4,207 nt of DNA from a virus (lineage: Duplodnaviria; Heunggongvirae; Uroviricota; Caudoviricetes): positions 1-4,207 of IMG/VR virus record IMGVR_UViG_2534681674_000014; one strand, 5' to 3'. Made by a program: the position numbers and the translations under genes. Under the pieces are notes generated by a model. The model was given only the letters and a program-made list of their open reading frames with translations, did not search any database and was not told the origin of the DNA. Positions 1 to 4,207 of this stretch are shown in pieces (position 1 is the first letter of the stretch; the number at the start of each line of letters is the position of its first letter).

Positions 1-97
1 AAACTGAAAGAGGGCTGGCAGCCGTTTGGTAGTCCGGTGGCCATAACCCCTTATACCCTGATGCAGGCGATTACAGCAGAAGGTGATGTGATGGTCA

Positions 98-319
98 GTG
101 GTGCAACTGAGCCGGATTGGGTACTACGTCATCGTACTGGCCGGGCAGTCCAATGCCATGGCTTACGGTGAAGGGCTTCCGCTGCCGGATTCATACGATG
201 CTCCGGATCCGCGCATTAAACAGCTGGCGCGCCGCAGTACGGTGACGCCGGCGGGGCTGCCTGCAGATATAACGATATTATTCCGGCCGACCACTGCCTG
301 CATGATGTGCAGGATATGA
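98..319 (+). CDS. Esterase N-terminal fragment carrying the GQSN catalytic-serine motif (out of frame with the rest of the gene)
   Basis: ORF-track frame-2 ORF (GTG start); translation contains VIVLAGQSNAMAYGEGLP, the block I motif of SASA/SGNH esterases. Confidence 0.5.
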   Translation: MVQLSRIGYYVIVLAGQSNAMAYGEGLPLPDSYDAPDPRIKQLARRSTVTPAGLPADITILFRPTTACMMCRI

Positions 320-1782
320 GTACGCTGAATCATCCGAAGGCAGACCTGAGCAAAGGGCAGTACGGCTGTGTCGGCCAGGGCTTACATATTGCCAAAAAAC
401 TGCTTCCGTATATCCCGAATAACGCGGGGATCCTGCTGGTACCATGCTGTCGTGGTGGTTCGGCATTCACCCAGGGCGCGGAGGGGACATTCAGTGCGGA
501 CGCGGGGGCCAGCCAGGATTCGGCACGCTGGGGTGTGGGTAAACCGTTATATCAGGACCTGATTGCGCGCACCAAAGCTGCATTACAGAAGAACCCGAAA
601 AATGTGTTGCTGGCGGTGTGCTGGATGCAGGGAGAGTTTGACATGAGCGCCGCCACCCACGCACAGCAACCTGCGCTGTTTACAGCCATGCTGACACAGT
701 TTCGTGTTGACCTCTCCGTGTTTAACGCGCAGTGCCATGGTGGCAGTGCTGCAGATGTGCCGTGGATTTGTGGTGACACGACGTATTACTGGAAAAATAC
801 ATACGCTACCCAGTACGACACCGTGTACGGCGGGTATAAAAACAGGGAGAGTGAGGGCGTTTATTTTGTGCCCTTCATGACAGACGGTAACGGCGTCAAT
901 ACCGCCACTAACGCGCCGGCAGAAGATCCGGATATTCCGGCATCAGGATATTACGGTGCGGCATCGAGAACGAATGGAAACCAGGTATCATCAAACCGCC
1001 CGACACATTTCAGTTCATGGGCGCGCAGGAGCATTATTCCGGATCGTCTGGCAACCGCTATTCTGAACGCAGCCGGGCGCACCTCAGCCTTCATCAGTGG
1101 TAAGGCACCGGAAATCAAACCCTCGCCCGGCGGCAACACGCCATCGGGTCCGTCTGCAGATACGTCCGTTCGCACAATCTCCCTGCTGCCGGCAGCCGGA
1201 GAGGCTGCTGCGCAGGGCTGGAGCATTAAGGATGGCGGAATTCAGTTGTCAGATGGTGTATTTAAGATCACCAAGCAGAGCAATAAAACCTGGTCCCTGA
1301 CGCATCCGGTGGATGACGCAATTACCCTGCTGACACAGGGCGGCAGACTGACCTGTAAGTTCCGCCTGTCAGGCGCACTGACCAACAATCAGTTCGGGCT
1401 GGGGATTTATCTGTATACGGATGCTCCCGTTCCTGATGGTGTGGCGATGACGGGTACCGGTAATCCGTTCCTGATGTCGTACTTCACTCAGACCACTGAC
1501 GGCAGAGTGAATCTGATGCATCACAGGAAAGCCGGAAACACGAAGCTGGGGGAGTTCGGCGATTACGGTAACGACTGGCAGACGCTGGAGCTGGTGTTCA
1601 CCGCCGGCAGTGCCACGGTTACTCCGAAACTGAATGGAGTGGCTGGCCCGGCATTCCAGGTTATAAAAGACAGTCTGACACTGGGACTGAATGCGCTGAC
1701 GCTGACGGATGTTACAAAAAATGCAGCGTATGGCGTTGAGATAGAAAGTCTGGTGCTGGAGATAAATGCACCGGCAGCATAA
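307..1782 (+). CDS. SASA-domain sialate O-acetylesterase, C-terminal 491 codons (NanS-p-like); true translation start uncertain because of the upstream frame breaks
   Basis: 1476-nt ORF; CWMQGEFD block (SASA block III-like); long Gly/Thr/Ser-rich C-terminal domain; sits immediately upstream of the holin, as in Stx-type lambdoid phages (from memory). Confidence 0.7.
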   Translation: MQDMSTLNHPKADLSKGQYGCVGQGLHIAKKLLPYIPNNAGILLVPCCRGGSAFTQGAEGTFSADAGASQDSARWGVGKPLYQDLIARTKAALQKNPKNVLLAVCWMQGEFDMSAATHAQQPALFTAMLTQFRVDLSVFNAQCHGGSAADVPWICGDTTYYWKNTYATQYDTVYGGYKNRESEGVYFVPFMTDGNGVNTATNAPAEDPDIPASGYYGAASRTNGNQVSSNRPTHFSSWARRSIIPDRLATAILNAAGRTSAFISGKAPEIKPSPGGNTPSGPSADTSVRTISLLPAAGEAAAQGWSIKDGGIQLSDGVFKITKQSNKTWSLTHPVDDAITLLTQGGRLTCKFRLSGALTNNQFGLGIYLYTDAPVPDGVAMTGTGNPFLMSYFTQTTDGRVNLMHHRKAGNTKLGEFGDYGNDWQTLELVFTAGSATVTPKLNGVAGPAFQVIKDSLTLGLNALTLTDVTKNAAYGVEIESLVLEINAPAA

Positions 1783-1790
1783 TAAAAAAG

Positions 1791-1823
1791 AGCCAGCGAC
1801 TGACCTGAAAGAAGACGCTGGCT
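1791..1823 (-). terminator. Hairpin (8-bp stem AGCCAGCG/CGCTGGCT, 17-nt loop) with a T-run on the minus-strand side; candidate minus-strand intrinsic terminator or 3' stabiliser of the esterase mRNA
   Basis: Stem arms at 1791-1798 and 1816-1823 are exact reverse complements; plus-strand AAAAAAG at 1784-1790 gives CUUUUUU after the hairpin on the minus strand. Confidence 0.3.
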
Positions 1824-1937
1824 AAAAGGCCTTATATGTTTGTAGAGACTTATTTTTCACAGACAGCAATGATGCCTGTCAATATATTATCAATATGCGG
1901 ATTGTTTCAGTTACAGATGCTTTATTAAGGAAAAAAC

Positions 1938-1972
1938 AGCCAGCACTGACTTTCGGTGGAGAGGTGCTGGCT
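1938..1972 (-). terminator. Second related hairpin (9-bp stem AGCCAGCAC/GTGCTGGCT, 17-nt loop), minus-strand T-run
   Basis: Arms at 1938-1946 and 1964-1972 are exact reverse complements; plus-strand AAAAAAC at 1931-1937 gives GUUUUUU on the minus strand; left arm plus start of loop (AGCCAGC.ACTGAC) is shared with the hairpin at 1791-1823. Confidence 0.3.
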
Positions 1973-2042
1973 CAGAAGGATAGTTGGATTTCACATGATA
2001 CTTATGCCTGGCGGTATATTTTCTGACAGACAGTGACGGGTG

Positions 2043-2069
2043 TTGTCAAGATATTGTGTCATTTATAAC
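2043..2069 (+). promoter_or_regulatory. Candidate sigma70-like promoter (TTGTCA - 15 bp - TATAAC)
   Basis: Hexamers at 2043-2048 and 2064-2069; spacing is suboptimal (15 bp), so this is weak. Confidence 0.2.
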
Positions 2070-2147
2070 CTGAATCAGGGGGTGGCCGGAATGTTATCTG
2101 GCATTTTTAGCAGAGCCTGAATGCCATAATCACGGCTCCCGGAGTTG

Positions 2148-2184
2148 GCCGTCAGTGGGTGACACTGGCGGCTTTTTTGTTTTT
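2148..2184 (+). terminator. Rho-independent terminator about 50 bp upstream of the holin start
   Basis: 10-bp stem GCCGTCAGTG (2148-2157) / CACTGGCGGC (2163-2172) with one G-U pair, 5-nt loop, followed by TTTTTTGTTTTT (2173-2184). Confidence 0.65.
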
Positions 2185-2228
2185 CTTTACTTGCATTTTC
2201 TGTCGGCGGTGACGGAGACATACATCAG

Positions 2229-2435
2229 ATGGAAAAAATCACAACAGGTGTGTCATACACCACGTCAGCGGTGGGGACGGGATACTGGTTACTGCAGCTG
2301 CTGGACAAAGTCTCTCCGTCCCAGTGGGTGGCAATAGGTGTGCTGGGAAGTCTGCTGTTTGGCCTGCTGACGTATCTGACTAACCTGTATTTCAAAATCA
2401 GAGAGGACCGTCGTAAGGTGGCGCGGGGAGAGTAG
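2229..2435 (+). CDS. S: Class II holin (phage 21 S21 / pinholin-like), 68 aa
   Basis: ATG at 2229 with GGAGA 12 nt upstream; two hydrophobic segments ([10 protein letters not shown] and [18 protein letters not shown]) and a charged C-terminus [13 protein letters not shown]; closely resembles the S21-type holin as I remember it; sits upstream of a SAR endolysin. Confidence 0.85.
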
Positions 2436-2690
2436 TCGATGAATAAACAATACGAACTGGTTGTAAAATGAATATTTCTAACTGAAAAAACGTTCCATGA
2501 GGTAAGAAAAGGTCACAGGCAATCAATAACAGGACGTGATGAAAGACCCTTGCATTTGTGCGCTTTCTCTTTAGATAGCAGCAGATACTGAAAATCTGAG
2601 TTGTCGGGGAGTCAGGGATACAGCTGTGCAAGAGTTGGTCATTGTGATTCCATTGAAATCCTGTATGCCATGAAGGGCAGGATTTTATGG

Positions 2691-3005
2691 CTACCTGAGC
2701 TTTGGTGATAGTAAGTTGAAAATTCGCATTTTTTGCTGACATGCGTAACGAGAATCCCATAAGCAGGGAGGACTTAATTCTTCATTAACCCATGCGTTGA
2801 TATTATGTTTCAGCCGTTGAAGCATCAGCGGTGTTAATGTTGTGGTAATAATATCCAGCGTTTTATGTGAGATCTTACCGTAAGGGTCTGCAAGAATGCT
2901 GCTTGTTGCTTCGTTATTATCTGCCATCAGAAGAAGTAACTCTGATTTAACGTTTTCTGTCATTAGTTGTAAAAATCTTCTGCGCAAACTTTCTTTACTG
3001 TTCAT
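2691..3005 (-). CDS. Hypothetical protein, 104 aa, antisense to the lysis genes, inside an AT-rich insert; no recognisable domain
   Basis: 104-codon open frame in roughly 32-40% GC DNA (hand-counted 60-nt blocks), where stop codons are frequent, so an open frame this long is unlikely by chance. Against it: no clear Shine-Dalgarno before the ATG at 3005 or before internal Met codons. Confidence 0.4.
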   Translation of the reverse strand: MNSKESLRRRFLQLMTENVKSELLLLMADNNEATSSILADPYGKISHKTLDIITTTLTPLMLQRLKHNINAWVNEELSPPCLWDSRYACQQKMRIFNLLSPKLR

Positions 3006-3077
3006 TTATATGGCTTCATTTGTTGTAATCTGCTGCGTCTCAAGGGATATGTTTATGAGAGCGACCATGAGTGTTGG

Positions 3078-3083
3078 ATTATA
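3078..3083 (-). promoter_or_regulatory. Perfect -10 hexamer TATAAT on the minus strand, about 75 bp upstream of the antisense ORF start; no good -35
   Basis: Plus-strand ATTATA at 3078-3083 is TATAAT on the minus strand; best -35 candidates (CTAATC/TCTAAT) are poor. Confidence 0.2.
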
Positions 3084-3122
3084 TACCTAACATATCAAGG
3101 GATTAGAAATCGATAAATCCCC

Positions 3123-3656
3123 ATGAACGAAAAAATAAAATACGGCCTGTCGGCTGCCGTTCTGGCGCTGATTGGTGCAGGTGCTTCTGCGCCTGAAATC
3201 CTCGACCAGTTTCTGGATGAAAAGGAAGGTAACCACACCACGGCATACCGTGATGGTGCGGGGATCTGGACCATCTGCCGTGGTGCCATTCTGGTGGATG
3301 GTAAGCCTGTTATTCCTGGCATGAAGCTGTCAAAGGAAAAATGCGACCGGGTTAATGCCATCGAACGTGACAAGGCGCTGGCATGGGTGGAGAAAAACAT
3401 CCGGGTGCCGCTGACCGAACCCCAGAAAGCGGGGATCGCGTCATTCTGTCCGTACAACATTGGCCCCGGTAAGTGCTTCCCGTCGACGTTTTATAAACGA
3501 ATTAATGCAGGCGATCGAAAAGGTGCCTGTGAGGCGATTCGCTGGTGGATTAAGGACGGTGGCAGAGACTGCCGTATCCGTTCAAATAATTGCTACGGTC
3601 AGGTCTCACGGCGTGACCAGGAGAGCGCGCTGGCGTGCTGGGACATCGACAGATAG
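3123..3656 (+). CDS. R: SAR-type endolysin, GH24 (T4-lysozyme family) muramidase, 177 aa
   Basis: N-terminal weakly hydrophobic Gly/Ala-rich signal-anchor-release segment (YGLSAAVLALIGAGASAP) followed by an E-x8-D-x5-T catalytic pattern (EGNHTTAYRDGAGIWT); paired with a pinholin-type S upstream. Confidence 0.85.
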   Translation: MNEKIKYGLSAAVLALIGAGASAPEILDQFLDEKEGNHTTAYRDGAGIWTICRGAILVDGKPVIPGMKLSKEKCDRVNAIERDKALAWVEKNIRVPLTEPQKAGIASFCPYNIGPGKCFPSTFYKRINAGDRKGACEAIRWWIKDGGRDCRIRSNNCYGQVSRRDQESALACWDIDR

Positions 3657-3744
3657 CAGAATATTTTCCTGAAAAATGACGTTGGCCAACGCGGGTGGAT
3701 AACACGAAATCCTGAAAACTGGTAAAACCTAAGTGAATAAAAGT

Positions 3745-3786
3745 AAAAACCCCGTTTGTTGGCAGCAAGCGGGGTTTTGTGTTTTC
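3745..3786. terminator. Intrinsic terminator downstream of the endolysin, possibly bidirectional (A-run before, T-run after)
   Basis: 9-bp stem CCCCGTTTG (3750-3758) / CAAGCGGGG (3766-3774) with one G-U pair, 7-nt loop TTGGCAG, then TTTTGTGTTTTC; AAAAA at 3745-3749 precedes the stem. Confidence 0.6.
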
Positions 3787-3876
3787 TGACCTTGAGTAAG
3801 GCAAGGGAGAAATTATGGGTAGGGAGGTACTTTCCCTGTGAGGAAGTATAAAAGATTCTTTCTGAGGTTGTCCATT

Positions 3877-3947
3877 ATGAAAGGCATTGAAGTGGAGACG
3901 CCAGCCAGTCTGGATTTAACAAGAGCGGCAGCTTTTGCCATTCGTAT
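3877..3947 (+). pseudogene. 5' fragment (first 24 codons, MKGIEVETPASLDLTRAAAFAIRI) of an unidentified gene interrupted by the IS element
   Basis: ATG at 3877 with GAGG 9 nt upstream; the frame runs straight into the IS terminal repeat at 3948 and stops inside it (TGA at 3985-3987). Confidence 0.35.
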
Positions 3948-3989
3948 TGAACCGCCCCGGGTTTCCTGGAGAGTATTTTATCTGTGAAC
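3948..3989. repeat. Terminal inverted repeat and end region of the IS element
   Basis: TGAACCGCCCCGGGTTTCCTGGAGAGTATTTTATCTGTGAACTC lies directly 3' of the transposase stop codon (plus 3990-3992). Confidence 0.55.
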
Positions 3990-4207
3990 TCAGGCTGCCA
4001 GATCATTATTTCCGATGGAAGCATAATAAGCTTTTTCTGCTTCTGCCGGAGGAATATGGCCCAGCCTTTCCAGCAATCGTCGATTGTTATACCAGTCCAC
4101 CCACGTTAGTGTGGCCAGTTCCACTTCTGTCCGGTTTTTCCAGCTATTACGGTGTATTACCTCCGCTTTGTAAAGACCATTGATGCTCTCAGCCATCGCG
4201 TTGTCAT
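3990..4207 (-). CDS. IS3-family transposase OrfB, C-terminal ~72 codons (partial; N-terminus is off the right edge)
   Basis: Translation ...MAESINGLYKAEVIHRNSWKNRTEVELATLTWVDWYNNRRLLERLGHIPPAEAEKAYY... shows the AES(F/I)NG..K.E motif and C-terminal region typical of DDE integrase-core transposases of the IS3 family; the frame is open to the window edge. Confidence 0.75.
   Translation of the reverse strand, partial: DNAMAESINGLYKAEVIHRNSWKNRTEVELATLTWVDWYNNRRLLERLGHIPPAEAEKAYYASIGNNDLAA

Follow-up and report, generated by a model that had tools for sequence, protein, structure and literature searches.

The stretch of DNA analyzed here (the window, 4,207 bp) is the entire contig AEZJ02000024.1 of the draft assembly GCA_000194215.2 of E. 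coli 97.0246, an STEC strain of serotype O5:H- (PMC4551483). From left to right, it holds a gene for a prophage 9-O-acetyl-sialate esterase of the nanS-p type on the plus strand (1–1782), broken by two 1-nt indels, followed by a class II holin gene (2229–2435) and a lysozyme gene (3123–3656), both of the late region. Between these two, in antisense orientation, is a conserved hypothetical gene (2691–3005, minus strand; WP_000138558.1, phrog_1853). The right end (3948–4207, minus strand) belongs to an IS3-family element (IS629/IS1203-like), which starts with the terminal repeat TGAACCGCCCCGGG and within which the contig stops; its called gene matches the Pfam families rve_3 and rve_2. The contig is thus bounded by repeats: on the left by the conserved 5′ part of the multicopy nanS-p, and on the right by the IS3-family element.

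The location of the esterase gene is that of the late region of a lambdoid prophage, between Q, stx or tRNA genes and the S-R lysis genes, and it is syntenic with annotated prophages. Megablast found the region in Stx1a-converting phages with identities of up to 99.3%. The E. coli prophages with this region number in the thousands, and the gene is listed in them as SASA family carbohydrate esterase, yjhS or 9-O-acetyl-N-acetylneuraminic acid deacetylase; a single E. coli genome may hold nanS-p at up to 13 places.

Some observations on the surroundings of the gene can be recorded at this point. In the spacer between the esterase and holin genes (1783–2228) there are two loosely similar segments about 132–147 nt apart (AAAAAAGAGCCAGC and AAAAAACAGCCAGC; ATGCCTGTCAATATATT and ATGCCTGGCGGTATATT), and several terminator-like hairpins, the strongest of them (2147–2173) directly before the holin gene. 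The same spacer contains a run of six A at 1784–1789, which is of seven A in nearly all the relatives; the six-A form was found in one complete genome, that of O121 RM8352. Concerning the gene at 2691–3005, its slot is taken in YYZ-2008 by a plus-strand gene of the YdfR family. The IS3-family insertion (junction 3947/3948) lies some 290 nt past the lysozyme gene, within a small ORF that precedes Rz in related prophages. The IS end is 100% identical to IS3-family copies of O26:H11 genomes, and thousands of copies of it exist across E. coli. The exact 3947/3948 junction, in one piece, was found in no complete E. coli genome; in F3113-type genomes the IS junction is instead 18 nt upstream of that in the window.

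The closest intact allele of the broken gene is that of E. coli NZRM3614, with 1851 nt and a product of 616 aa (WP_115333669.1). The start of the gene in the window is cut by the contig end, with 69 nt (23 codons) gone. In the intact protein, Pfam recognized DUF1737 (residues 3–50), SASA (from residue 66) and DUF6645 (467–577), while the matches to proteins of known structure were E. coli NanS/YjhS (PDB 3PT5) over residues 59–379, with an E value of 2.4e-121, and the NanS-p C-terminal domain (PDB 6YP6) over residues 421–613, with an E value of 8.6e-30. Two of these domains were also recognized in the window as it stands: nucleotides 1–168 matched positions 22–53 of the DUF1737 profile (PF08410) with an E value of 1.1e-6, and the product of 316–1782 contained the lectin-like C-terminal domain DUF6645 (PF20350) with an E value of 3.3e-18. 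The combination of DUF1737, SASA and a lectin-like C-terminal domain is known from the nanS-p family of Stx phages (PMC10462455). According to a preprint, DUF1737 is a capsid-decorating domain, cleaved off after about residue 54–57 in phi24B gp84.

The manner in which the gene is broken was analyzed by three-frame translation of positions 1–330 and by alignment to intact alleles. Frame 1 reads KLKEGWQPFG...GATEPDW, continues as VLRHRTGRAVQCHGLR and stops at TGA (169–171, plus strand); a second frame-1 stop, TAA (214–216, plus strand), follows it. Frame 2 encodes YYVIVLAGQSNAMAYGEGLPLPDSYDAPDPRIKQLARRSTVTP, which is an exact match to intact NanS-p proteins. It includes the GQSN motif of SASA/SGNH block I, the nucleophile serine of which is encoded by TCC at 149–151 (plus strand), as shown by the translation together with the alignment to the AGQSNAMAYG block of NanS (3PT5). 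The two frame-1 stops and the frame-2 location of the GQSN block had been pointed out in the preliminary description of this DNA, and both were confirmed. The motif is moreover not a chance occurrence, since the peptide is identical to that of intact NanS-p and homologous to NanS/YjhS.

The alignments placed the two indels precisely. The first is the insertion of one G in a run that is GG in the reference and GGG in the window (119–121, plus strand), which moves the true frame from frame 1 to frame 2. The second is the deletion of one G from a run that is GGG in the reference and GG in the window (250–251, plus strand; 81% G+C context), which brings the true frame back to frame 1. The extra and the missing G are 131 bases apart. 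Between them, at 241 (plus strand), the window has an A-to-G substitution with respect to the closest alleles, which leaves the amino acid of the reference frame unchanged (ACA to ACG, Thr), with G241 being found also in the divergent F3113-type allele. These three positions (119, 241 and 250) are the only ones that differ from the intact NZRM3614 coding sequence in 1782 nt. When both indels are undone, the translation becomes identical to residues 24–616 of WP_115333669.1. So, the preliminary description was right in proposing two indels that cancel modulo 3 and in estimating their places at 110–125 and 240–300; the alignment to homologues that it had recommended as a check also showed that the 13 intact alleles aligned are all read in one continuous frame. 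From 217 onward, frame 1 meets no stop before that at 1780–1782, its true coding being resumed at about 250. That the two shifts cancel is without functional meaning, given the two stops that separate them.

The consequences for the predicted products are as follows. Read from the native start, the deposited sequence gives 79 aa, of which 63 are native (the DUF1737 domain plus linker) and 16 are out of frame. After the shifts, the first start codons available are a GTG (307) and an ATG (316), the second of which is the one chosen in GenBank. The database entry splits the broken gene into three pieces: a partial PF08410 domain protein, a 53-aa ORF (158–319, plus strand; EIG92415.1, hypothetical protein EC970246_5673), which is a frame-2 fragment running from just after GQSN into an out-of-frame tail, and a 488-aa ORF (316–1782, plus strand; EIG92413.1, PF03629 domain protein). 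The latter begins downstream of the GQSN serine codon and keeps only SASA profile positions 58–157 together with DUF6645, so that the downstream product lacks the catalytic serine, as had been anticipated. As deposited, the GQSN block is out of frame with the N-terminus and with the rest of the SASA domain, and it is in frame only once both indels are repaired. Judged by its DNA, the gene belongs to the known NanS-p family and has the location usual for it, but as an ORF it does not have the GQSN motif in frame, a defining feature of the family.

Among known genes, the most similar are the NZRM3614 allele (WP_115333669.1) and the alleles near-identical to it in the Stx1a phages YYZ-2008 (YP_002274178.1) and Stx1a_EH2115. 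All of them occupy the same place as the gene of the window, after the Q antiterminator, tRNA or stx genes and before a class II holin gene. With respect to NZRM3614, the window differs by the additional G at 119–121, the A-to-G change at 241, the G missing at 250–251 and the first 69 nt cut by the contig end. The NanS-p proteins of 933W and phi24B (gp84, or vb_24B_21; 6YP6) share the architecture of DUF1737, SASA and lectin-like domain. They represent, however, a different allele, the C-terminal match to 6YP6 being homologous but visibly divergent, and the frame is interrupted in the window. The chromosomal NanS (YjhS, 3PT5) is homologous in its catalytic domain, over residues 59–379 and including the AGQSNAMAYGEGLPLPD block, but it has neither DUF1737 nor DUF6645 and is not phage-borne.

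Other copies of nanS-p are also broken. In the complete genomes of 7_56_38A (432–3596 of locus L012) and O103:H2 FWSEC0007 (432–3595 of locus L013), the gene is split by IS3-family insertions at two different positions, and the halves are annotated as separate DUF1737 and DUF6645 pseudogenes. N-terminal fragments frameshifted at other positions are likewise on record (proteins P0024, P0025, P0026 and P0048), some of them from megabase contigs. In the H-19B record AF034975.3 (3001–4796 of locus L003), single-base gaps occur at six scattered places of nanS-p with respect to all the other alleles, and no coding sequence is annotated over the gene. These gaps probably go back to old errors of sequencing, which concealed the gene, and they provide a precedent for errors of that sort. 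A frameshift in common with O111:H11 CVM9553, in which a 32-aa ORF clustered with the frame-2 ORF of the window, was considered and rejected, as the contig concerned shows a different 5′ truncation: in AKAY01000284.1 (1019–1152 of locus L011) the nanS-p homology starts at about window position 118 and is joined to unrelated AT-rich phage DNA. The same junction is present in two complete O111:H11 genomes (NZ_CP077567.1 and NZ_CP077491.1), this truncated form of the gene being specific to O111:H11. The O111:H11 truncation is a real rearrangement unrelated to the additional G, and the nearness of its breakpoint to the insertion site looks coincidental. The IS-split, O111:H11-truncated and H-19B copies have their frames broken by other causes or at other positions, and none of them carries the indels of the window.

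The two indels were sought in other sequences by several approaches. Megablast of positions 90–280 against 5,426 complete E. coli genomes returned 4,710 homologous places in 1,487 genomes. Neither indel was present in these places, the best identity being 98.4%, which corresponds to exactly three differences over 90–280. Neither was found among phage records with the same query (best identity 97.9%). In collections of viral, genome and metagenome contigs, an exact 30-mer over 119–121 gave zero matches, and so did an exact scan across the 250–251 junction. When the predicted 79-aa product was compared with protein sequences, numerous N-terminal fragments were retrieved, and the frameshift tail WVLRHRTGRAVQCHGLR occurred only in the protein of the contig itself. 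In summary, neither lesion was reproduced in independent records, contigs or proteins. A second assembly of the strain was sought by exact look-up of ORFs of 491, 488, 73 and 48 aa and of the 39-aa IS-junction ORF, and only AEZJ02000024.1 was retrieved. Literature searches for the accession and for sister strains yielded the serotype but no description of the sequencing method used for the assembly.

The pattern of the changes private to this contig was then considered as a whole. Four changes are unmatched by the closest alleles: three are 1-base changes of run length (G2 to G3, G3 to G2 and A7 to A6) and one is a transition. The third run-length change corresponds to the six-A run at 1931–1936 (plus strand, intergenic), which is of seven A in every relative examined; the best of 3,312 places was still one position off, and in the one top match that was aligned (2013C-4974) this position was the A-run. 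By comparison, positions 2194–3949 are identical to strain E105, and positions 1203–3949 differ from 2013C-4974 only at two A-runs and at 1377 (common to NZRM3614). The private changes are clustered: three of these four fall in the terminal 250 nt of the contig (P about 0.006), with no more than 131 nt separating them (P about 0.011).

From these data we infer that both frame changes are probably errors in the deposited consensus and not mutations of the bacterium. The changes have the features expected of such errors, since they are single-base length changes in mononucleotide runs or GC-rich context (119–121, 250–251 and 1931–1936), and they occur in a single draft assembly, close to where a contig ends or a repeat begins. 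Most errors of pyrosequencing and of compression concern run length. The proposal is that homopolymer-length or GC-compression miscalls would have gathered at the end of a contig that lies between repeats, where support is poor. It is favored because such miscalls at the contig end account at once for how many changes there are, of which kind they are and where they lie. On the other hand, there are arguments against it. Homopolymer errors classically affect runs longer than G2 and G3, a consensus with three errors in 4.2 kb has a high error rate unless the coverage was locally poor, and real inactivation of nanS-p copies is common. If the frame changes are indeed errors, the true gene probably encodes an intact 616-aa NanS-p identical to WP_115333669.1, with a predicted esterase activity on 5-N-acetyl-9-O-acetyl neuraminic acid. 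From its domains, this protein would consist of an N-terminal capsid-binding DUF1737, a SASA/SGNH esterase with the GQSN serine as the nucleophile, and a C-terminal lectin-like DUF6645, and its gene would belong to a lambdoid late operon, in which the holin and lysozyme genes come shortly after it.

The main alternative is that the copy of strain 97.0246 truly has one G more at 119–121 and one G less at 250–251, i.e., that it is a genuine, recent pseudogene. Its products would be a 79-aa peptide with DUF1737 only and, from the ATG at 316, a protein that lacks the GQSN serine and is predicted to have no esterase activity. Given the two stops between the shifts, these would cancel by coincidence, and the loss would be tolerated because intact copies exist in other prophages. 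The reading frame is certainly broken when compared to intact homologues, and the depositors annotated the sequence as it stands. The multicopy character of nanS-p, with up to 13 places per STEC genome, implies a weak selection on any single copy. Disruption of the gene is frequent elsewhere, through IS3 insertions as well as through frameshifts located differently, and the prophage of the window is itself already damaged by the IS3-family insertion just downstream of the lysozyme gene.

Nevertheless, a pseudogene would need two independent frameshifts, plus the third 1-nt indel at 1931–1936, against one substitution in 4.2 kb. In spontaneous mutation of E. coli, there are roughly ten substitutions per indel. 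Since substitutions outnumber indels about tenfold, a pseudogene old enough to have acquired a second frameshift and a third indel should carry several substitutions. No such relaxation of constraint was observed: besides the indels, the 1782 nt contain a single difference, a synonymous one when read in the reference frame. The other 1,650 nt or so agree fully with the intact allele, so the gene presents no other sign of decay. The clustering of the changes at the contig end and the absence of either indel from every other isolate, phage or metagenome searched also argue against real mutations. The preliminary description had left open the choice between a pseudogene and a sequencing or assembly error; the evidence now favors the error, and a real pseudogene is somewhat unlikely, though it keeps an appreciable share of the probability. 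The paralogous copies bear on a further point, the possible origin of the consensus as a chimera of paralogous reads: the G at 241 belongs to the F3113-type allele, but the neighboring F3113-specific bases are absent from the window.

A different interpretation of real shifts is that the +1 change at codon 64 uncouples the structural from the enzymatic role of the protein, giving a stand-alone 79-aa DUF1737 capsid decorator in which the esterase has been given up. This idea arises because the insertion falls just after DUF1737 and after the cleavage site reported at about residue 54–57 of phi24B gp84. The putative 79-aa product can be likened to the many natural proteins that have DUF1737 as their single domain. 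We regard this interpretation as very improbable. Programmed ribosomal frameshifting across both shifts, or a downstream start with a coincidental GQSN motif in frame 2, has solely in its favor that the two shifts cancel, and it was rejected as having a practically negligible probability: all 13 intact alleles aligned are in one continuous frame, the frame-2 peptide is identical to intact proteins and aligns with the NanS crystal-structure sequence, two frame-1 stops lie between the sites, and Rfam gave no match to a recoding element, or to any other RNA family, within the window.

Concerning the meaning of these results, if the frame changes are errors, GenBank and UniProt hold three spurious protein fragments (the partial PF08410 protein, EIG92415.1, and EIG92413.1/A0A8E0FLI1), and the count of functional nanS-p genes for strain 97.0246 is one too low. 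If the shifts are real, the strain provides another case of inactivation in a prophage gene that exists in redundant copies, an outcome well documented for nanS-p through IS insertions and other frameshifts. Neither explanation, that of an error in the databases or that of an ordinary pseudogene among redundant copies, implies anything new, and the biological importance is small under either reading.
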